The position numbers and the translations under genes are program-made. DNA of 10,208 nucleotides, from the UHGV virus genome UHGV-0247914; one strand, written 5' to 3'. Shown piece by piece: positions 1 through 7,350 of this stretch (the first letter of the stretch is position 1; each line of letters opens with the position of its first letter). The stretch comes from a virus. The notes under the pieces were generated by a model that did not search any database, was not told where the DNA came from, and was given only the letters and a program-made list of their open reading frames with translations.

Positions 1-4
1 CATA

Positions 5-30
5 TCACTCTCCTTTGATGCGAATGCCAG
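5..30. repeat. Copy 1 of a 26-bp direct repeat at the 3' end of a gene (junction module)
   Basis: tcactctcctttgatgcGaatgccag at 5-30 matches 499-524 with one mismatch. On the minus strand it encodes the C-terminal I-x-I-K-G-E, the TGA stop and an AAGGAG that serves as RBS for the next gene. Confidence 0.85.
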
Positions 31-496
31 TGGTACTCATTCTCCTGATTTCCCAGAGCACACGAGGAACACCACCGTTTCCGACCGGATCGCGTTTACT
101 CCGCAGGGCGACGCTTGATTCCGCCCAGCTTTTTCTTGGAGGAAGCTCTTTCACACGAACAAAACCAGCTGCGCGGAGAGATGCTCCTGATTCATCTGCC
201 TGGGTGTACGTAATACAACGTTGATAACCCATAGCCTTTGCTGCCCGCCAGACAGCACCATAAAGCGCGCTGTTAGCGTTGCGTTCTCCTGTGGTACATG
301 TGCGATTTACTTCAAGCGTTAATCCATCGTCCAAATGTCGTGCAACAGGTCTACCGGCTGTCGCCACACCTATCAATTCTCCGGCATCATTTCTCAGACC
401 AATGCTGAATTTATGCCCCACCGGGGGTTTATTGTGTCGGTGATGTCTGGATATAAACGCCTTCGCAACACGAAGAGTAACCGGTGAAATCTGCAC
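5..496 (-). CDS. Hypothetical protein, possibly GNAT-fold acyltransferase-like; C-terminus ...GIRIKGE
   Basis: The ORF track gives 5..517 with a TTG start. An in-frame GTG at 494-496 sits 7 nt after an AAGGAG (complement of 504-509) and is the more likely start. Stop is TGA at 5-7. Central region (…TLEV…SALYGAVWRAAKAMGY…SGASLRAAGF) loosely resembles an acyl-CoA N-acyltransferase core; this is from memory, not a search. Confidence 0.5.
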   Translation of the reverse strand: MQISPVTLRVAKAFISRHHRHNKPPVGHKFSIGLRNDAGELIGVATAGRPVARHLDDGLTLEVNRTCTTGERNANSALYGAVWRAAKAMGYQRCITYTQADESGASLRAAGFVRVKELPPRKSWAESSVALRSKRDPVGNGGVPRVLWEIRRMSTTGIRIKGE

Positions 497-498
497 TC

Positions 499-524
499 TC
501 ACTCTCCTTTGATGCAAATGCCAG
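499..524. repeat. Copy 2 of the 26-bp direct repeat (junction module)
   Basis: tcactctcctttgatgcAaatgccag; 25/26 identical to 5-30. Encodes ...GICIKGE, the stop, and the RBS for the gene at 5..496. Confidence 0.85.
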
Positions 525-1170
525 CGACGCGTGGCACATTAACTTCCACGATGCGCACAGTTGGTTTGTACATCTCAATCGCTGTCAGCCAGTCAGCGCC
601 AGTCATGCGCTTTTCTGCATCGCCATTAGTCCACTTAACCGGTACACCAATAGCCTTCATCGCTATTTCTATTTCCCCGGCGATGGCGCTTTTTCCGCAA
701 CCAGTAAAACCAGAAACAACGACAAGAACTTCACCTTTGGCTGGTTTTATTTCCCGTGCTTCCAGTTCAGCAATACTTACGCATATCTCTGCGCCTCTAA
801 TCAGCCCCGGAACGTTCTTGTTTGGCCCAACTTCACCATCGACAAAATCAATCATCGCGTTACGAGCCATATCCACACCCTGCGCCCGCACTTCAGCAAG
901 GGAGGCGTCGGTGGCTGGGGTTTCCGTGAAGTTGTCCTCCCAACCGTAGTACTCCTGACGACAGAAGTTATTAAATTCCTTCTCCGACTGTTTAAGCCCC
1001 GCATTCTCCGCTGCCAGCGCATTAGCACGCACCAGTTGCACTTCCAGTTGCGTTGCCAAATCGCTGATCAGCTTTGCCACACTGCGCATATCAACGGCAC
1101 CACATTCTGCTTTCAGTTCCGAAGCCATCTCATGCCCGGCGGCAACTAACCCTTTGATATTACTTTCCAT
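499..1170 (-). CDS. Hypothetical protein with a predicted coiled-coil N-terminus and a Walker-A-like motif (GFTGCGKS)
   Basis: 223-aa ORF with ATG at 1168-1170 and GAGGG 5 nt upstream on the minus strand. The N-terminal third looks coiled-coil-like by eye. GxxxxGKS occurs about 70 residues from the C-terminus. Ends ...ICIKGE, sharing the junction repeat. Confidence 0.6.
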   Translation of the reverse strand: MESNIKGLVAAGHEMASELKAECGAVDMRSVAKLISDLATQLEVQLVRANALAAENAGLKQSEKEFNNFCRQEYYGWEDNFTETPATDASLAEVRAQGVDMARNAMIDFVDGEVGPNKNVPGLIRGAEICVSIAELEAREIKPAKGEVLVVVSGFTGCGKSAIAGEIEIAMKAIGVPVKWTNGDAEKRMTGADWLTAIEMYKPTVRIVEVNVPRVAGICIKGE

Positions 1171-1231
1171 CTTTACCCTCGCTTATCCACATAACTTATT
1201 GATTACACTGATAACTAAAAAGATCGTCGAT

Positions 1232-1576
1232 TCAGAACTCTTCGATGTTCCAGCCACCACCTGCTTTCTTTGGTTTAACCGTTACCCCGATGATTCGGAA
1301 CGGATACTGATCTGCGGCGACTTTGGTTTTCACCCTGGCGTCGTCGGTCCAGAAACCTTTCACTTCGTGCAGTTCCATCTCGCCGGTGGCGAGCATCACA
1401 GCAAAATCGGGCGTATAGAACGTGTTGTCAGCTAACCGTAGCTTGATACCCTCGAATCGATACCAGGCGATTTCCCCTGCACGTTTACGAAGCTCAAGGT
1501 GCTGGCAATACGCAGATTCTGTTTTGTTCATCTGGCCTGTTTTGAGTCGACCAAGAGCCTGTATCTGTTTTCTCAT
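1232..1576 (-). CDS. Small protein with a PD-(D/E)xK-like motif (possible VRR-NUC-like nuclease)
   Basis: 114-aa ORF with ATG at 1574-1576 and AGGGG 6 nt upstream. Contains TPDF...ELHEVKG, resembling a PD...E-x-K nuclease core. First gene after the P terminator. Confidence 0.55.
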   Translation of the reverse strand: MRKQIQALGRLKTGQMNKTESAYCQHLELRKRAGEIAWYRFEGIKLRLADNTFYTPDFAVMLATGEMELHEVKGFWTDDARVKTKVAADQYPFRIIGVTVKPKKAGGGWNIEEF

Positions 1577-1579
1577 GAT

Positions 1580-1594
1580 TTACCCCTGAGGTAA
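1580..1594. promoter_or_regulatory. Operator-like palindrome TTACC-CCTGA-GGTAA
   Basis: Perfect inverted-repeat half-sites TTACC/GGTAA with a 5-bp spacer. Overlaps the RBS region of the gene at 1232..1576. Confidence 0.5.
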
Positions 1595-1635
1595 TTAAAA
1601 ACCACATAAGACACGAAATCAATAGATCTTAGAAC

Positions 1636-1663
1636 ATTTTATTACCTAGCAGGTAATTATCAA
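1636..1663 (-). promoter_or_regulatory. Putative sigma70 promoter for the accessory cassette, with the operator in its spacer
   Basis: Minus strand: -35 TTGATA (complement of 1658-1663), 16-bp spacer, -10 TAAAAT (complement of 1636-1641). The spacer is the palindrome at 1642-1656. Confidence 0.4.
1642..1656. promoter_or_regulatory. Operator-like palindrome TTACC-TAGCA-GGTAA
   Basis: Perfect half-sites; with flanks aTTACCtagcaGGTAAt. Lies between the putative -35 and -10. Confidence 0.5.
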
Positions 1664-1668
1664 GACGT

Positions 1669-1690
1669 AAAAAAATGCGCTATCGCGCTG
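1669..1690 (-). terminator. Weak intrinsic terminator after the P homolog
   Basis: Minus-strand RNA GCGC-GAUA-GCGC (4-bp GC stem) followed by AUUUUUUU, immediately after the TAA stop at 1694-1696. Confidence 0.35.
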
Positions 1691-1693
1691 GTA

Positions 1694-2479
1694 TTACTTG
1701 ATAAATCCTGCCGCCTTTCCCCGCCTGTATTCCTCCATCAGCCACTGCGCCGGTGTTATTCCCCCCAGGGTAGCGGCGTTAGGCATACACCCGAAACTTC
1801 GCCCTGGTGGATGGTAAACGTCTCTCCCTGTGTCCGGAGGCGTACTCATGGGTTCTGGCTTTGCCTGTATGCTGATCACCGGATCGGGTATCTGCTGTCC
1901 GGAAGCCACCTTTTTCGCCCAATCATCGAGCAGCCTGCGCGCGTGTTTCTCAACCTCAATCTCGCTAAGCTGGCGCTGATACATTGCACGGCGGGTATCA
2001 CATACGACCCAGTACATAACCGGATGTCGCCACGGGAATCTTTCGGGACCACCAGGATATAAACTTTTTTCCTTGCTGTACCGGTGAAACTCCGCCATCA
2101 CATCGTCAATGGTGACGCCAAGAACCATCTTGCTGTCTTTACACCACTTGATGAATTGCCCTGGCGACGGCCAGAACGGAGACTCACTGGCGCGGGCGTG
2201 GCGCATACCAGCAGAAACCTGTTCACGGGTTCGGATCCCCCCTTCGGCAAACGCAGCAATCCACTGCTGTTTTGCAGCGACTTCCTGCTCTGGCGTCTTC
2301 AGGTTGGTTACCACTGCCGCCGGAAACAGTTGTTTCAGCTGTTTGAAAAGGGCATCAACAAGCCTCTCTGCTGACATGTTCACCACGTTGTCATTGTTGG
2401 TGTACTGATGCTCATAACCTGACATGCGAGAAAGGGCTTCTCCGTCACGGTTTTGTATCGCGGTAAAAACGTTGTTCAC
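1694..2479 (-). CDS. P: Replication protein P homolog (lambda P-like DnaB helicase loader)
   Basis: Central region QQWIAAFAEGGIRTREQVSAGMRHARASESPFWPSPGQFIKWCKD matches my recollection of lambda P (RRQWVLAFRENGITTMEQVNAGMRVARRQNRPFLPSPGQFVAWCRE). The ORF track starts at ATG 2492-2494, but GTG at 2477-2479 has GGAGGA 6 nt upstream and overlaps the upstream TGA as GTGA, so it is preferred. Confidence 0.85.
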   Translation of the reverse strand: MNNVFTAIQNRDGEALSRMSGYEHQYTNNDNVVNMSAERLVDALFKQLKQLFPAAVVTNLKTPEQEVAAKQQWIAAFAEGGIRTREQVSAGMRHARASESPFWPSPGQFIKWCKDSKMVLGVTIDDVMAEFHRYSKEKSLYPGGPERFPWRHPVMYWVVCDTRRAMYQRQLSEIEVEKHARRLLDDWAKKVASGQQIPDPVISIQAKPEPMSTPPDTGRDVYHPPGRSFGCMPNAATLGGITPAQWLMEEYRRGKAAGFIK

Positions 2480-3267
2480 AAGAAATCCTCCCATGCTTCA
2501 GGGCTGTTCCAGTGCGGAACGTTGTTATCAGGTAATGTTGATTGCTTCTGTCTGCTAATCTGCAGCCGCCTTGCCAGCTTCTGCTCCCACTGTGCCTGAT
2601 GGTATGCCTTACCCTCAGCCATCCAGTAAATTCTGAACTCTGCAAGTTCCTGTGCCGTTGGCAGACTGTCCAGGTAGATCCCCTGCAATGAGCTTTTCCG
2701 AAGAAAGTCATCTGATGGCTGCCATTGTTCATGCATGACAAATTTGCCTAATTGCCCTGGCCCACCAGGAGGAACAAAGTTATTCATCACGGCGTTGTTT
2801 GCGCCGGGGTCATGAGGCACAGAATCCCCGCTTTTTGTCCTGCTCTCCCTCTCTTGGTTAAATGACTGGTTATATGACTGGTTCTGGATCCCGTTTTTGG
2901 GATCATTCAACATCCCGTTTTTGGGTATATTCCCGTTTTCGGGTATATTCCCGTTTTCGGGTTCATTGCCCCACTCCCGGTTGCCTTTAATGTTCCCGTT
3001 TTTGGTTATATTAAGAGAGAAAACCCGCACTCTTTTTGTCGCTCCCTTTCTCTCTCCGGTATCTGAAATAAGCCCCATTTTCATGAGCGATATAAGCCCG
3101 GCCTGCACGGTTTTTTTATTCAGGCAAGTGTCTTTAACGAGGCGTTCTATGCTGGGGTAGCAGAGGTTATATTCATCGGCTCTGTCAGCCATCGAGAGCA
3201 GTATGAGCTTTAATGATGAGCTACCTGGATCTGTCTCCCAGGCCCAATCTGTTGCATGTCTGCTCAT
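2476..3267 (-). CDS. Replication initiator protein (lambda O-like functional analogue)
   Basis: 263-aa ORF with GGAG 8 nt upstream of ATG 3265-3267. N-terminal region looks like a winged-helix/HTH DNA-binding domain. A low-complexity NGNIPENGNIPKNG linker is encoded by DNA iterons. Sits directly upstream of, and coupled to, the P homolog. Confidence 0.75.
   Translation of the reverse strand: MSRHATDWAWETDPGSSSLKLILLSMADRADEYNLCYPSIERLVKDTCLNKKTVQAGLISLMKMGLISDTGERKGATKRVRVFSLNITKNGNIKGNREWGNEPENGNIPENGNIPKNGMLNDPKNGIQNQSYNQSFNQERESRTKSGDSVPHDPGANNAVMNNFVPPGGPGQLGKFVMHEQWQPSDDFLRKSSLQGIYLDSLPTAQELAEFRIYWMAEGKAYHQAQWEQKLARRLQISRQKQSTLPDNNVPHWNSPEAWEDFL
2889..3012. repeat. Iteron array inside the initiator gene (putative replication origin)
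   Basis: Five copies of TCCCGTTTT(T/C)GG(G/T)T at 2889, 2913, 2931, 2949 and 2994, mostly followed by ATAT. Copies 2-4 are spaced exactly 18 bp apart. Flanked by a TGACTGGTT x2 repeat (2863-2884) and a polypurine/polypyrimidine, moderately AT-rich stretch (3013-3060). Confidence 0.7.
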
Positions 3268-3282
3268 GATTAATCTCCGCTA

Positions 3283-3483
3283 TCAGCTTGAGTGTTGTGG
3301 GGAGGAATTAATCATGATCTGCTTAATCTCTGCCCTGATGCGACGGTTTGACTCCATGGTGCACTCAACACAGTGTCCGTTGTAAACCCAGCGTTCACTG
3401 TCATGTCCGTGCTTACATGGTTTTCCGGTGTAGTAGCGTTTAAGTCCGCGCTTTGCGGCATCAATACGTGTAATGATTTCCAT
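3283..3483 (-). CDS. Small Cys/His-rich protein (possible zinc-binding), in the position cII occupies in lambda
   Basis: ORF track gives 3283..3546. The hydrophobic N-terminal extension looks unlikely, so the internal ATG at 3481-3483 (MEIITRIDAAKRG...) is preferred. Contains C-K-H-G-H ... H-C-V-E-C. Stop is 18 bp before the initiator gene start. Confidence 0.45.
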   Translation of the reverse strand: MEIITRIDAAKRGLKRYYTGKPCKHGHDSERWVYNGHCVECTMESNRRIRAEIKQIMINSSPQHSS

Positions 3484-3564
3484 GGTAAGCCCTGTTATTA
3501 GTATTGGGATTACGGTTATTTTGTGCTGACACAAAAAAAAGATCAACCAGATTTGGTTTTTTAT

Positions 3565-3579
3565 TACCTTTGAGGTACG
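3565..3579. promoter_or_regulatory. Operator-like palindrome TTACC-TTTGA-GGTAc (one mismatch)
   Basis: Same TTACC-N5-GGTAA architecture, just downstream in the minus-strand transcription direction of the terminator at 3580-3612. Confidence 0.4.
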
Positions 3580-3612
3580 AATAGATATGAAAAGACCGCC
3601 GGATGGCGGTCT
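3580..3612 (-). terminator. Intrinsic terminator after the cro-like gene (tR1-like position)
   Basis: Minus-strand RNA AGACCGCC-AUCC-GGCGGUCU (8-bp stem) followed by UUUCAUAUCUAUU, 22 nt past the TGA stop of the cro-like gene. Confidence 0.6.
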
Positions 3613-3633
3613 ACAGAGGGTTGTTGCCAGATA

Positions 3634-3864
3634 TCATGAGTAGAAGAAGTATGCCAGTTCCGCTTTTGAGCGCAGCCATTGTCTTGTTTTACAGGCTTTA
3701 AAAAGCCCATTCATCAATACCTTACCTGGCATTTTGCGCTTACCTGTTAAGTGAGTCTGGATATAGTGACTCGTCGTTCCGGCTTCCTGTGCGAAGGCTT
3801 CACGCTCATCCGGAGTAAGTGCAAGCCAGTGCTTTTTGAAATCGAAATGTCCGTTATCGCTCAT
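3634..3864 (-). CDS. Cro-like HTH regulator (YdaS-like), first gene of the minus-strand early operon
   Basis: 76-aa ORF with an HTH-like segment (LTPDEREAFAQEAGTTSHYIQTHLTGKRKMP). Divergent from the repressor across the operator region. Confidence 0.7.
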   Translation of the reverse strand: MSDNGHFDFKKHWLALTPDEREAFAQEAGTTSHYIQTHLTGKRKMPGKVLMNGLFKACKTRQWLRSKAELAYFFYS

Positions 3865-3889
3865 AGCTATTGCCTGATATTTATTTCAG

Positions 3890-3918
3890 ATAATAAATAT
3901 TCACCCATAAGGTAACAA
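3890..3918 (-). promoter_or_regulatory. Putative PR-like promoter for the cro-like operon
   Basis: Minus strand: -35 TTGTTA (complement of 3913-3918), 17-bp spacer, -10 TATTAT (complement of 3890-3895). The palindrome at 3901-3915 lies in the spacer. Confidence 0.4.
3901..3915. promoter_or_regulatory. Operator-like palindrome TcACC-CATAA-GGTAA (one mismatch)
   Basis: First of three sites in the divergent intergenic region, phased like an OR1-OR2-OR3 cluster. Confidence 0.45.
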
Positions 3919-3931
3919 AAATCAAGGATAG

Positions 3932-3946
3932 TTACCTATGGGGTGC
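3932..3946. promoter_or_regulatory. Operator-like palindrome TTACC-TATGG-GGTgc (two mismatches)
   Basis: Middle site of the divergent cluster and the weakest match. Confidence 0.35.
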
Positions 3947-3948
3947 AT

Positions 3949-3963
3949 TTACCTGTTGGGTAA
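3949..3963. promoter_or_regulatory. Operator-like palindrome TTACC-TGTTG-GGTAA (perfect)
   Basis: Site of the cluster nearest the repressor gene. Confidence 0.5.
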
Positions 3964-4018
3964 TATTGCTTTAAATTGAATCATCTACTGATTCATATAT
4001 GAGGCGATTTTCCAGAAA

Positions 4019-4603
4019 ATGAAAAGTATCCAGGACGTCCGCAGGCAAAATCTCAACGACTTGATCGACCGTGAATTCAATGGTGTTCAGACGCGGATGG
4101 CAGAAAAACTTGGAACTCAGGCAAATCTGGTAAACCGCTGGGCTCTTGGCAAGAAGGTTATCGGCGACCAGGTTGCGCGAAAAATTGAAGCTGCCGCCAA
4201 TAAACCCCGTAACTGGCTTGATATCGATCGCTCGCTTTCTCAGGAAGGTTTTCAGCCTGTCGGCCCAAGCGACATTGGTCAGCTGGCAGCTCACAACCTG
4301 GAACGCTGGATGAGTGAAAGCCGCGACCTTTCAACTCAGGGAAAACTTCACCGCGCATCCGGCGTCGCCCAGGTGACAATCAGTCGCCTGTTAAACAATG
4401 AGGTCAGCGTTTCCATTTCCACCCTGGAGAATGTTGCATCCGCATTCGGGCGTCACGGATATGAACTACTGATTCACCCGCACGACCCTGCGACTATCAA
4501 CTATGACCGCTCGCGCTACGCATTGTTACCCGAAACCGAGAAAGCAAAGATCGAAAGTTACATTGAATTTGTCATCAACCAGAACGAAAAAAACAAACAA
4601 TAA
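4019..4603 (+). CDS. Repressor-like regulator with two HTH domains (CI position)
   Basis: 194 aa. HTH 1 is about residues 20-70 (TRMAEKLGTQANLVNRWALGKKVIGDQVARKIE); HTH 2 is about residues 110-150 (HRASGVAQVTISRLLNNEVSVSISTLENVASAFG). No S24 peptidase (LexA-like) motifs were seen. First ATG has no good SD within 5-10 nt. Confidence 0.7.
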   Translation: MKSIQDVRRQNLNDLIDREFNGVQTRMAEKLGTQANLVNRWALGKKVIGDQVARKIEAAANKPRNWLDIDRSLSQEGFQPVGPSDIGQLAAHNLERWMSESRDLSTQGKLHRASGVAQVTISRLLNNEVSVSISTLENVASAFGRHGYELLIHPHDPATINYDRSRYALLPETEKAKIESYIEFVINQNEKNKQ

Positions 4604-4624
4604 AATCATACTCTTCAGTAAGTA

Positions 4625-4650
4625 AGCCGCCTTCTGGCGGCTTTTTTATT
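4625..4650 (+). terminator. Rho-independent terminator after the repressor gene
   Basis: AGCCGCC-TTCT-GGCGGCT (7-bp stem) followed by TTTTTTATT. Confidence 0.8.
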
Positions 4651-4660
4651 GCCTATACTA

Positions 4661-4675
4661 TTACCTAATGGGTAA
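4661..4675. promoter_or_regulatory. Operator-like palindrome TTACC-TAATG-GGTAA (perfect)
   Basis: With flanks aTTACCtaatgGGTAAt; 20 bp upstream of the -35 of the PL-like promoter. Confidence 0.5.
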
Positions 4676-4694
4676 TTTTTTTAACTCATATCTA

Positions 4695-4723
4695 TTGACA
4701 TCAAACCAAATACGCATAATTAT
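4695..4723 (+). promoter_or_regulatory. Putative PL-like promoter for the recombination/integration operon
   Basis: Consensus -35 TTGACA at 4695-4700, 17-bp spacer, -10-like AATTAT at 4718-4723. The palindrome at 4723-4737 abuts the -10 and covers the start region. Confidence 0.5.
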
Positions 4724-4737
4724 TACCTCAACGGTAA
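4723..4737. promoter_or_regulatory. Operator-like palindrome TTACC-TCAAC-GGTAA (perfect)
   Basis: Overlaps the -10/+1 region of the PL-like promoter. Confidence 0.5.
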
Positions 4738-4756
4738 CAGACCGAGGTAACAAGTT

Positions 4757-4909
4757 ATGCAGTGGAAAATCATCAACGGTTGGTACTGCGTTACTGCATG
4801 CGGATTCATGAGCTGGAAGTTCCGCACCTTACAGGAAGGCATTAAGTGGGCTTTCGTCAGCAAAGAAGCTCGCGATGTAGCCAACGATAACGAGATATGG
4901 GAGGGCTGA
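4757..4909 (+). CDS. Small ORF (50 aa), possible first gene of the plus-strand operon
   Basis: ATG at 4757 to TGA at 4907-4909 (MQWKIINGWYCVTACGFMSWKFRTLQEGIKWAFVSKEARDVANDNEIWEG). GAGGT lies 9 nt upstream. Not in the ORF track and not recognisably similar to anything I know. Confidence 0.3.
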   Translation: MQWKIINGWYCVTACGFMSWKFRTLQEGIKWAFVSKEARDVANDNEIWEG

Positions 4910-4911
4910 TA

Positions 4912-5211
4912 ATGAACGTTAATCAGCAGAAAAATCTTCAAAAAATCATGCTGGCATTCGACAAGGACTACCGCCTGTCAGAACAGCTATATGACCGACA
5001 AGTTGAACTGATTGAGAGCATCCGACTTCATCAACTGTCCTCAACTTTCGACGTTGTAACAGGCAAAGGCGTTCGTCAGGAAGTGCTGGAGGCTGCTAAA
5101 GACAGCCCTGAGTTCGAAGAACTGATGGATGCCTACCGGCGCGAGGCAATGGCAATTATAGCGCGCTGGGATCTGGCGGATCAGCTTGATGGACAGAGGG
5201 ACGCGGCATGA
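4912..5211 (+). CDS. Hypothetical protein (99 aa)
   Basis: ATG at 4912 is preceded by GGGAGGG with 6-nt spacing; the track's 4897 start is a less likely upstream ATG. Stop overlaps the next start as ATGA. Confidence 0.55.
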   Translation: MNVNQQKNLQKIMLAFDKDYRLSEQLYDRQVELIESIRLHQLSSTFDVVTGKGVRQEVLEAAKDSPEFEELMDAYRREAMAIIARWDLADQLDGQRDAA

Positions 5212-6029
5212 AACCGGGAATTTATTTCGACATCAGCAACGAAGACTACCACGCCGGTGACGGCGTGAGTAAGTCGCAACTGGACATGGTTGCCAAGAAT
5301 CCGGCGCTTCTTAAATGGGTTCAGGCAGCACCAGAAGACGAAGAGAAAAAGTCTGCACTGGATATGGGAACCGCATTGCACTGTCTGCTTCTGGAGCCTG
5401 GAGAATTCGACAAACGCTTCATTGTTTCACCGAAGTTCGATCGTCGGACGAAACAAGGTAAAGCTGACGAAGAAGCATTTCTTCGTGATGTAGCGGATAT
5501 GGGGATTACGGTACTTGATGCCGAGCAGTGGCGGAAACTGGAGCTGATGCGTGATAGCGCAATGGCTCACCCGGCGGCACGCTGGATGCTGGAAGCACCT
5601 GGTTACTGCGAAGCATCAATGTACTGGAACGATGAAGAGACGGGTGAGTTGTGCCGAATTCGTCCAGACAAATGGCTGAACGAGCACAACGTGATCGTCG
5701 ACGTGAAAAAGGTTGCAGATATGGACCGTTTTGCACGTCACATCGAGGAATTCCGCTACCACGTGCAGGACGCAATGTACCGCGAAGGCGCAATGAGGGT
5801 TACTGGTCAGCCGCATGGTTTTTTCTTTCTTGCCGTGAGCGAAAGCATTGATTGTGGTCGGTATCCGGTACGCGTGTTCGGGCTGGATGCGCCGGATGTC
5901 GATGCCGGGCACGCTCTGTTCCGCCGGGATCTGAATACCTATCACGAATGCCGCATCAGCGATGAATGGGGCGGCGTGGAAATTATTAAACGCCCTGAGT
6001 GGGCACGCAAACAGGATATGTACGTATGA
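5208..6029 (+). CDS. PD-(D/E)xK exonuclease (RecE-like, partner of the annealing protein)
   Basis: 273 aa with RPDKW...VIVDVKKVADMD, a PD...D-x-K nuclease core. GAGGGA RBS. ATGA overlaps at both ends (5208-5211 and 6026-6029). Confidence 0.7.
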   Translation: MKPGIYFDISNEDYHAGDGVSKSQLDMVAKNPALLKWVQAAPEDEEKKSALDMGTALHCLLLEPGEFDKRFIVSPKFDRRTKQGKADEEAFLRDVADMGITVLDAEQWRKLELMRDSAMAHPAARWMLEAPGYCEASMYWNDEETGELCRIRPDKWLNEHNVIVDVKKVADMDRFARHIEEFRYHVQDAMYREGAMRVTGQPHGFFFLAVSESIDCGRYPVRVFGLDAPDVDAGHALFRRDLNTYHECRISDEWGGVEIIKRPEWARKQDMYV

Positions 6030-6943
6030 GCAACGAAATTGCAATCACCAATGATGTGTTGGCTATTCGGGGAATCGATGAAGTTACATGGAGCGCTCTG
6101 AAAAACAGTATTTACCCTGGGGCAAAAGATGAATCGGTAATGATGGCAGTCGATTACTGCCGGGCGCGTCAACTCGATCCTCTTCTTAAGCCGGTACACC
6201 TGGTACCAATGAGTGTTAAAGACTCGAAGAGTGGAAAGAATGAATGGCGCGACGTGGTCATGCCTGGCATTGGACTTTATCGCATTCAGGCCTACCGTTC
6301 CGGCGATTACGCAGGCGCTAATGAACCTGAGTTCGGTCCAGATGTAACACAAACGCTTTCAGGCGTGGAGGTTACCTTCCCTCAGTGGTGTAAGTACACC
6401 GTCAGCAAGCGAATGGCAAGCGGGGAAATCGTAGAGTTTAGCGCCAAAGAATACTGGATTGAGAACTATGCAACTGGGGGGCGTGACACATCGGCACCAA
6501 ATGCCATGTGGAAAAAGCGCCCTTATGCGCAGTTGGCAAAATGCGCAGAGGCACAGGCATTACGTAAAGCATGGCCGGAGATTGGTCAACAAGCCACAGC
6601 TGAGGAAATGGAAGGTAAATATATCGACTCACCTGACATTATTGAACGTGACGTAACTCCAAGAAGTCAGGCAAAGCACGGCACAGCATCCAGCATGAAC
6701 AGTCTGATCAACGCTAAACCAGTGAAAAAGCATGATGAGCAAACGCGTAAAGCGGATAGCCGTGATCCAGAAGAAATGCTGATGGCCTTTACCAGCGCAG
6801 CGATGAATTACAGCACTGTCTCCGAACTGGATAAGGCTTACAAATACATTGCACAAAAACTTTCAGATGATGACGAACTGCTGGCAAAAGCCACCGACGT
6901 TTACAGCGTTCGTCGGGAAGAATTAAACGAAACATCTATGTAA
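6026..6943 (+). CDS. RecT/Bet-family single-strand annealing protein
   Basis: Track ORF starts at 5999; ATG 6026 overlaps the upstream stop as ATGA. PGIGLYRIQAYRSGDYAG and MWKKRPYAQLAKCAEAQALRKAWPE resemble conserved RecT/Bet segments as I recall them. Confidence 0.75.
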   Translation: MSNEIAITNDVLAIRGIDEVTWSALKNSIYPGAKDESVMMAVDYCRARQLDPLLKPVHLVPMSVKDSKSGKNEWRDVVMPGIGLYRIQAYRSGDYAGANEPEFGPDVTQTLSGVEVTFPQWCKYTVSKRMASGEIVEFSAKEYWIENYATGGRDTSAPNAMWKKRPYAQLAKCAEAQALRKAWPEIGQQATAEEMEGKYIDSPDIIERDVTPRSQAKHGTASSMNSLINAKPVKKHDEQTRKADSRDPEEMLMAFTSAAMNYSTVSELDKAYKYIAQKLSDDDELLAKATDVYSVRREELNETSM

Positions 6944-6951
6944 CCACCACC

Positions 6952-6970
6952 GCGGCGCCACACGCGCCGC
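6952..6970 (+). other. GC-rich stem-loop between the recT-like and AlpA-like genes
   Basis: GCGGCGC-cacac-GCGCCGC, a perfect 7-bp stem with no following U tract, 22 nt before the next start codon. Confidence 0.4.
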
Positions 6971-6992
6971 ACTGCAACCAAGAGAGGTATTT

Positions 6993-7241
6993 ATGAAAGG
7001 TGCATTAGATAAGAAGAAACTCCTGGCGGTGGTGCCACTGTCATGGAGCACTATCGACCGTATGGAGCGCGCAGGTGAATTTCCTAAACGCTGGTATATC
7101 ACTGACAAACGCTGCGCATGGAACCGTGACGAAGTTGAGCGTTGGCTTGATGAACGTCAGGCAGCAAGCCCGGCAGAGTTCCAGGGTAAAAAGCCTCCTG
7201 TTCAGCAACGTGTATATCGTCCTGTGAGAAACGCTGCATGA
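6993..7241 (+). CDS. AlpA-family phage regulator / excisionase-like HTH protein
   Basis: 82 aa with AGAGAGG RBS. Pattern LSWSTIDRMERAGEFPKRWYITDKRCAWNRDEVERWL fits the AlpA family signature (S-x-ST ... G-x-FP ... R-x-x-W ... EV-x-x-W). Confidence 0.75.
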   Translation: MKGALDKKKLLAVVPLSWSTIDRMERAGEFPKRWYITDKRCAWNRDEVERWLDERQAASPAEFQGKKPPVQQRVYRPVRNAA

Positions 7242-7350
7242 GTGTGCTGCTAAGGCACTGGAGCAAATGGTCAGGATGGTACTTATTCCTGGCCTCTGTT
7301 TCAGCATGGCTTTATCTGCTGGCATTAATTTTCAGAGAGGGTTGGATTAA

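Follow-up and report, generated by a model that had tools for sequence, protein, structure and literature searches.

The 10,208 nt of the UHGV virus genome UHGV-0247914 (the whole stretch analysed here, hereafter the window) carry, inside the gene of a protein with an N-terminal winged helix and a DnaT-like C-terminal domain, five short repeats that are most probably the iterons of a lambda-type replication origin. They lie in the part of this HTH_36/DnaT-like initiator gene which encodes the linker between the two domains. The repeats are constrained at the DNA level, and throughout a large family they are inherited with the winged-helix domain; the gene that contains them is part of a helicase-loader replication module. 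Binding of the initiator to them, the site of unwinding, the recruitment of the helicase and the origin activity itself are what we infer from this arrangement, and by analogy the element would work like ori-lambda, its initiator not being a member of the O family.

The iteron array in the window

A search with TCCCGTTTTYGGKT, allowing at most one mismatch, finds exactly five matches in the window, every one on the + strand, where dinucleotide shuffles give a mean of 0.01 and none of 200 shuffles reaches five. One copy, at 2889-2902, has a mismatch, at its final A. The start-to-start distances are 24, 18, 18 and 45 bp, the copies at 2913, 2931 and 2949 being exactly 18 bp apart, just as the original prediction of five repeats with three of them in 18-bp phase had it, and Tandem Repeats Finder reports a period of 18 bp at 2913-2962 with 96% matches. 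The initiator open reading frame (ORF) is on the minus strand, so the relevant reading of the iteron is the reverse complement: the sense-strand form is (A/T)CCC(G/A)AAAACGGGA, and the + strand motif is its antisense. In translation the array gives T88-G126, TKNG...PENGNIPENGNIPKNGMLNDPKNG, in agreement with the earlier statement that the repeats encode an NGNIP(E/K)NG linker. Nowhere else in the 10-kb early region is there a comparably strong cluster of repeats.

A possible degenerate sixth iteron at 2969-2982, read by eye, sits in the 45-bp gap, 25 and 20 bp from its neighbours, and keeps the CC-N6-GG spacing with loss of the A-tract. The looser pattern CCCRAAAACGG with two mismatches was uninformative (9 found, 5.3 expected), and a terminator-like hairpin on the + strand at 2898-2917 was dismissed, being merely the dyad of iterons 4 and 5 in antisense.

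Conservation of the array with the winged-helix domain

For comparison, 84 homologous loci (80 species genomes and 4 phages) were chosen by N-terminal peptide similarity alone; the species include Vibrio, Pseudoalteromonas, Marinomonas, Acinetobacter, Providencia, Edwardsiella, Enterobacter, Sphingomonadales, Desulfovibrionaceae and Polaromonas. An 18-nt position weight matrix (PWM; consensus CAGTCCCAAAAACGGAAC), applied to both strands of these loci and the window, has 382 matches in the linker regions (ORF nt 200-650, 36.2 kb in total) and 29 in the remaining 240.5 kb, that is 10.6 sites per kb against 0.12, a ratio which is partly circular, as weighed below. The family motif is CCC-AAAAAC-GGG. 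A lack of repeats at this point in homologous initiator genes had been named beforehand as a result that would refute an origin; the opposite is seen, with at least two sites at the same place in 38 of the 41 non-redundant loci, the window included. The consensus of each locus shows an extended dyad (e.g., AACAGTCCCAAAAACGGGACTGTT), as would be expected of a site read by a winged-helix dimer.

The four phages that share the N-terminal domain (PPompW, Vibrio phage H20, Edwardsiella phage GF-2 and Acinetobacter phage AP22, with 34-43% protein identity) all have CCCAAAAACGGGA-like arrays some 280-470 nt into the gene, and the motif is absent from homologues that have only the C-terminal domain in common (SPN1S, Tyrion). 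With the N-terminal domain as query and a limit of E <= 1e-10, an exhaustive, profile-free protein search recovers 560 clusters (50% identity), and at least two iteron-encoded peptide motifs are present at amino acids 81-200 in 105 of 120 full-length representatives. In Enterobacterales, Vibrio, Acinetobacter, Sphingomonadales and others alike, the motif accompanies the HTH_36 N-terminal domain, whilst C-terminal domains, downstream genes and hosts vary.

At shorter range, a scan of IMG/VR with the N-terminal alignment yielded only loci that are 99-100% identical, which were used for copy-number polymorphism and are of no use for divergence. In these 78 near-identical loci the array has four to nine copies; the modal spacing is 45, 18, 18, 24 and 24 bp (61 of 78), and the five-copy form of the window occurs in 5 of 78. 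Most close relatives, phiV10 among them, have one additional 24-bp unit and hence six iterons, and phiV10 has three of the 12-mers described below.

A protein search with the 89-amino-acid N-terminus gave mostly truncated or frameshifted fragments, few of which were used, for the AlphaFold2 (AF2) alignment. Gene entries in this family are often truncated to 85-160 amino acids (e.g., P0002, P0004, P0009 and P0036), and in YDC107_2 (L006) the A5/A6 runs of the iterons contain 1-nt indels. The iteron A-tracts appear to be prone to frameshifts, by sequencing error or real pseudogenisation, and to give rise to gene calls with shifted frames.

Constraint on the DNA and on the peptide

In the window all five copies share one reading frame, but across the family they do not: 27 of the 41 non-redundant loci have sites in more than one frame. 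The core, in a total of 176 sites, is read as PKNG in frame 0 (119 sites), as xQKR(N/D) in 34 and as xPKTE in 23, and successive sites within a single gene (L111) follow the frames 1,0,1,0,2,0,1,0,2,0,0. Inverted copies of the motif also occur among the homologous loci. The same core in several frames, giving unrelated peptides, indicates that the constraint is on the DNA and not on the peptide. Codon choice can be set beside this: the third C of CCC, four-fold degenerate in frame 0, is C in 98% of cases, and all four Pro codons of the window's array are CCC, elsewhere the rarest Pro codon (9 of 99), with a Fisher p = 1.6e-4 that overstates the case since the copies of an array are not independent.

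A second conserved element beside the iterons

The original prediction had also drawn attention to a flanking TGACTGGTT repeat, present twice, and to a polypurine/polypyrimidine stretch, and both turn out to be real features of the locus. The first is part of a 12-bp tandem repeat whose counterpart is conserved family-wide at a constant distance from the array: RGAAYC stands 2 nt after the 18-nt PWM window of the last iteron in 57 of the 74 unique homologous tails. It is repeated two to three times with a period of 12/13 bp (e.g., cAGAACCagtcattAGAACCagtcatAGAACC) and is often followed by an A-rich run such as TAAAAATAAAAA, which is clear in many relatives. The window's 12-mer repeat at 2855-2883 is the local version of this element and begins 2 nt after the PWM window of iteron 5. 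In the family the period of the element alternates between 13 and 12, which puts successive copies in different frames (QNQSL versus EPVIEP), so that here too the constraint is on the DNA. Compared by eye with the DnaA-box and IHF consensuses, the 12/13-mer gives no convincing match. In the initiator gene only one 30-mer is less stable than the segment 2850-2879 (z = 1.86, GC about 40%), and this instability of the 12-mers lends only modest support to a role in unwinding.

The second feature, the purine tract at 2826-2855 (90% purine on the sense strand, and so polypyrimidine on the + strand), occupies the position of ori-lambda's purine- and A-rich region. The two most purine-rich sense 30-mers of the window, this one and 3028-3057, flank the array some 200 bp apart and both contain GACAAAAAG; the former encodes QERESRTKSG and the latter the conserved wing motif GERKGATKRV, and together they form an imperfect direct repeat.

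The initiator protein

Pfam assigns to the 263-amino-acid initiator an HTH_36 domain at amino acids 18-67 (E 1.7e-10) and a DnaT domain at 176-244 (E 1.1e-15), and HTH_36 is matched by all 40 of 40 family members. For amino acids 1-89 AF2 gives a confident winged helix with a mean predicted local distance difference test (pLDDT) of 87.7 and H-H-H-H-strand-strand topology. The full-length model has two confident domains (pLDDT 82-95 in the winged helix), between which amino acids 90-171 fall below a pLDDT of 50 and are devoid of secondary structure, i.e., a linker of about 80 residues predicted to be disordered. The linker-coding part of the gene holds the iterons (amino acids 88-126), the 12-mers (128-138) and the purine tract (138-148).

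With the N-terminal domain as query, Foldseek finds DNA binders with winged helices among PDB entries and, in BFVD, phage proteins of the HTH_36 type; the PDB matches are generic winged-helix regulators and staphylococcal RepA_N only (template modelling scores of 0.5-0.6), so no specific family can be assigned on this basis. Tandem winged helices of the Rep_3 type were looked for in Pfam, which returned no Rep_3/RepA match, the protein having a single winged helix with only weak matches to DnaD_N, RP-C and Cdc6_C. In the C-terminal half, amino acids 172-257 match residues 85-170 of Escherichia coli DnaT in a phmmer search of the PDB (E 6.5e-21), the entries being 9zbt, 6aep and 4ou6 (E about 1e-20). 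In E. coli genomes the gene goes by the name 'DnaT-like ssDNA-binding domain-containing protein', given by PGAP.

The gene had been called O-like. This holds for its lambda-like layout, but not for its ancestry as far as sequence comparison can tell: homology to lambda O was rejected, there being no match to PF04492 (Phage_rep_O), an empty BLASTP against lambda O and an hhalign probability of 5.8%, from an alignment that covers only the generic helix-turn-helix and wing region. Weak PF04492 matches are found in only 6 of 40 relatives.

Comparison with known origins

Ori-lambda, which lies inside O, has four inverted repeats as binding sites for O dimers and, after them, an A+T-rich region of 40 bp (PMC5043065). 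In both systems the origin, a putative one in the window, lies within the initiator gene, between the regions coding for the DNA-binding N-terminal and the recruiting C-terminal parts; the iterons are followed by a purine- or A-rich stretch; and a P gene follows directly downstream, in a PR-like operon for which the window has a candidate promoter. The original claim that origin repeats sit inside the initiator gene as they do in lambda is matched by the neighbourhood, with a lambda-P homologue (E 1.5e-56) next to the initiator. The same claim held the iterons to be different in sequence from those of lambda, and identical they are not, but the core CCC-AAAAC-GGG is closer to lambda's TCCCTCAAAACGAGGGA than that wording implies: the lambda iterons (ATCCCTCAAAACGAGGGA and variants) and those of the window (e.g., ACCCGAAAACGGGA) are both dyads with CCC/GGG arms around a sense-strand A-tract (AAAAC) in the same orientation.

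There are differences as well. Lambda half-sites are 9 nt apart, whereas the CCC...GGG half-sites of the window are 6 nt apart, 3 bp closer; lambda has four iterons, whereas the window has five (its relatives four to nine), with 18/24-bp spacing and, in the window, all in one frame; the 40-bp A+T-rich region of lambda is replaced in this family by the 12/13-bp RGAAYC repeats; and the lambda initiator belongs to Phage_rep_O (PF04492), whilst that of the window combines HTH_36 with a DnaT-like domain.

With E. coli DnaT (primosomal protein I) the protein has in common the single-stranded DNA (ssDNA)-binding domain of residues 85-170 (E about 1e-21); the N-terminal domain of DnaT (residues 1-84) is absent, and in its place are the winged helix and the iteron-encoded linker. 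DnaT acts in the replication restart primosome, whereas the protein of the window is encoded in a phage module of the O/P type. The counterparts of the initiator and P genes in phiV10/Uetakevirus are p43-p44; in the records of these phages the initiator gene is called 'primosomal protein / DnaT' or 'replication initiation protein', and an origin is not among the annotated features.

Origins embedded in the initiator gene are also found in other phages, such as P22 (gene 18) and SPP1 (gene 38). In iteron plasmid origins (e.g., RK2 oriV, with 13-mers in its unwinding element) direct repeats bound by a winged-helix initiator lie beside the short repeats of the melting region. The likeness to the window is in the repeats beside short elements and in an origin within or next to the initiator gene; the window's protein has no match to Rep_3/RepA, and melting or binding of the RGAAYC repeats is putative.

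If the analogy with ori-lambda is right, dimers of the winged-helix N-terminal domain would bind each dyad site, (A/T)CCC-RAAAAC-GGGA, and the five (perhaps six) A-tract-containing sites would assemble a nucleoprotein complex resembling the O-some. The duplex could then open next to these sites, at 2826-2883, within the 12-mer repeat and the purine-rich tract, and the DnaT-like C-terminal domain and the neighbouring lambda-P homologue would bring in the host DnaB helicase.

Modularity of the recognition domain and its sites

The array is inherited with the winged-helix domain, independently of the C-terminal domain. This is seen in Edwardsiella phage GF-2, the C-terminal half of which is lambda-O-like and whose DNA aligns with that of lambda from CGTCnGAGAATTCTG onward, directly past lambda's A+T-rich region; upstream of this point come the HTH_36 domain and, in place of the lambda iterons and A+T-rich region, iterons and 12/13-mers that are GF-2's own. 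The junction suggests that recognition domain, iterons and presumed unwinding element move as one cassette. Other C-terminal modules in the family are DnaT-like (window, PPompW and L147), DnaA_N (L169) or of no known family, the DnaT-like one occurring in only about 8 of the top 150 representatives. The gene downstream encodes lambda P (window, L007, L099, L124 and L147), a DnaC/IstB-like ATPase (L095), a DnaB helicase (AP22) or a Toprim protein (L097), all of which belong to replication modules.

It is tempting to generalise, and we do so tentatively, with rather less than even confidence in the proposition as a whole. A portable origin-recognition cassette, made of a winged helix, CCC-N6-GGG dyad iterons and fixed-offset RGAAYC 12/13-mers, may exist in hundreds of protein clusters across Proteobacteria and may have been fused repeatedly to DnaT-like modules, the C-terminal half of lambda O, DnaA domain I and other helicase-recruiting modules, with the 12/13-mers as a previously undescribed sequence-specific unwinding or helicase-loading element that the initiator would read in the manner of the 13-mers of DNA unwinding elements or of DnaA-trios.

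Two members of the wider set deserve mention. The initiator of an Erythrobacter sp. (L169:1501-2595) has at its C-terminus a module of the DnaA N-terminal type (domain I; Pfam DnaA_N, E 1.2e-8), which suggests direct recruitment of DnaB independent of a P-type loader. In the epsilon15-like Salmonella phage SPN1S (L011, 1048-1863) the DnaT-like C-terminal domain is joined to another N-terminus and there are no such iterons; there is no lambda-P gene downstream, a 345-nt gene for a hypothetical protein lying directly next. Its origin and its helicase-loading route must differ.

Alternative explanations and points of weakness

Several observations weigh against reading the array as an origin. The candidate unwinding region is only moderately unstable, and among the 30-mers of the gene the least stable one lies at iteron 1. 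The ORFs scored with the PWM also served to train it, which makes the enrichment ratio partly circular and leaves the flanks as its sole control. Most sites (119 of 176) are in frame 0, meaning that a constraint on the peptide contributes too. Copy number varies from four to nine among near-identical genes, as it does in all tandem repeats prone to slippage. Homology of the initiator to lambda O cannot be demonstrated, and thus the mechanistic analogy is indirect. Finally, the open-access literature yielded no experimental evidence of binding or of origin firing.

The alternative that survives best is that the repeats do bind the winged-helix domain but serve autoregulation, copy control (handcuffing) or attenuation of transcription of the O-P operon, the real origin being elsewhere in the phage genome. 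Plasmid iterons and initiator sites within genes can indeed be regulatory, the A+T-rich element of the window is weak, and the origin activity of the array is itself something we infer. Even so, the 10-kb early region offers no comparably strong repeat cluster to serve as an origin in its stead, a second conserved DNA element always lies past the array at a fixed offset, in most cases with an A-rich run as well, an arrangement that befits an origin and not an operator, and in GF-2 the cassette replaces exactly the iterons and unwinding region of lambda. A purely regulatory role is accordingly improbable in our judgement.

Less credit can be given to the idea that the motif is the site of a different protein (a host factor, phage repressor, packaging protein or recombinase) and is in this gene by coincidence. 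The initiator is the presumed binder, which is what the idea draws on; yet the motif keeps strictly to the HTH_36 N-terminal domain whilst C-terminal domains, downstream genes and hosts change, and the flanks, at 0.12 sites per kb, are nearly devoid of it. Least probable of all is that the array is a slippage-prone, low-complexity protein linker of P-K/E-N-G repeats with no DNA function, which would account for five copies in one frame giving a peptide repeat, for spacings that are multiples of 3, for a copy number polymorphic between four and nine and for the predicted disorder of the region, but is largely refuted by a DNA core that is read in three frames (119/34/23), mixed within the gene in 27 of 41 loci, as unrelated peptides, by inverted copies and a fixed rare CCC codon, and by 12/13-mers that change frame as well.

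Read as a lambda-type origin, the array makes a specific and testable origin for prophages of the phiV10/Uetakevirus type, found in about 8% of complete E. coli genomes, and the family-wide grammar of dyad iteron and fixed-offset 12/13-mer could guide origin annotation in phage and prophage lineages that number in the hundreds. It also offers a clear-cut natural case of a disordered linker in which constraints on the DNA and on the protein overlap, and of a recognition cassette swapped against various helicase-recruiting modules, which extends the lambda/P22 paradigm. The principle is classic; what is new, and directly testable, is the family-wide grammar and the conservation independent of reading frame. 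In the open-access literature, the coverage of which is incomplete so that absence is not proof, we found no description of this origin, its motif, the 12/13-mer element or the origins of phiV10 and epsilon15. The initiator family, its binding-site motif and the conserved second repeat appear not to have been described, the layout being the classic one.

Prophage setting and neighbouring genes

Judging from gene identity and gene order, the window is the early region of a temperate phage of the phiV10/Uetakevirus type, an E. coli prophage. The initiator gene is 94-99% identical to that of phiV10, phiv142-3, PAS61 and EC.W1-9, it is found in 424 of 5,426 complete E. coli genomes, and the order of the genes is that of phiV10: repressor, cro-like gene, small ORF, initiator, P and DUF1064. 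The features of the window are collected in Table 1.

Table 1. Features of the origin region and its surroundings in the window (coordinates in nt; iterons numbered in the sense direction).
Feature	Coordinates	Strand	Sequence, evidence or remarks
PR-like sigma-70 promoter candidate	3890..3918	-	would transcribe through the origin; consensus scan only, 9/12 matches; weak
Terminator-like hairpin, tR1-like position	3593..3612	-	AGACCGCCATCCGGCGGTCT then TTTT; phiV10 annotates a terminator at the equivalent place
Initiator gene, 263 aa	2476..3267	-	HTH_36 winged helix, disordered linker, DnaT-like C-terminal domain; ORF, translation, Pfam, AF2
Winged-helix N-terminal domain coding region, aa 1-85	3013..3267	-	presumed iteron reader; AF2, Foldseek, Pfam
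Iteron 1	2994..3007	-	sense AACCAAAAACGGGA, encodes TKNG
Possible degenerate sixth iteron	2969..2982	-	AACCGGGAGTGGGG; read from the sequence by eye, without PWM score; tentative
Iteron 2	2949..2962	-	sense ACCCGAAAACGGGA, encodes PENG
Iteron 3	2931..2944	-	sense ACCCGAAAACGGGA, encodes PENG
Iteron 4	2913..2926	-	sense ACCCAAAAACGGGA, encodes PKNG
Iteron 5 (last)	2889..2902	-	sense TCCCAAAAACGGGA, encodes PKNG
12-bp tandem repeat	2855..2883	-	sense AGAACCAGTCAT / ATAACCAGTCAT / TTAACC; candidate unwinding or loading element; Tandem Repeats Finder: 2.4 copies, 94% matches
Sense-strand polypurine tract	2826..2855	-	AAGAGAGGGAGAGCAGGACAAAAAGCGGGG; 90% purine, tied highest in the window
DnaT-like C-terminal domain coding region, aa 172-257	2497..2754	-	presumed ssDNA-binding or helicase-loader-recruiting module; phmmer vs PDB
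Lambda-P-type helicase loader gene	1694..2494	-	Pfam Phage_lambda_P PF06992, E 1.5e-56; phiV10 annotation

With its candidate promoter and terminator the upstream layout seems lambda-like as well, running from pR through the cro-like gene, terminator and small ORF to the initiator and P; the hairpin sits between the cro-like ORF and the replication genes. The P-like ORF, directly downstream of the initiator, overlaps its stop codon, and its start is ambiguous: it could be the ATG at 2494, with a 19-nt overlap with the initiator, or the GTG at 2479 (GTGA, a 4-nt overlap), as annotated in phiV10. A last observation concerns Escherichia phage BP9 (L003, PP488543.1, 130937-138295), filed as a 138-kb Vequintavirus, the terminal 7.4 kb of which are 99% identical to positions ~1-7300 of the window; this suggests that the BP9 record is an assembly chimera or contaminated with prophage.

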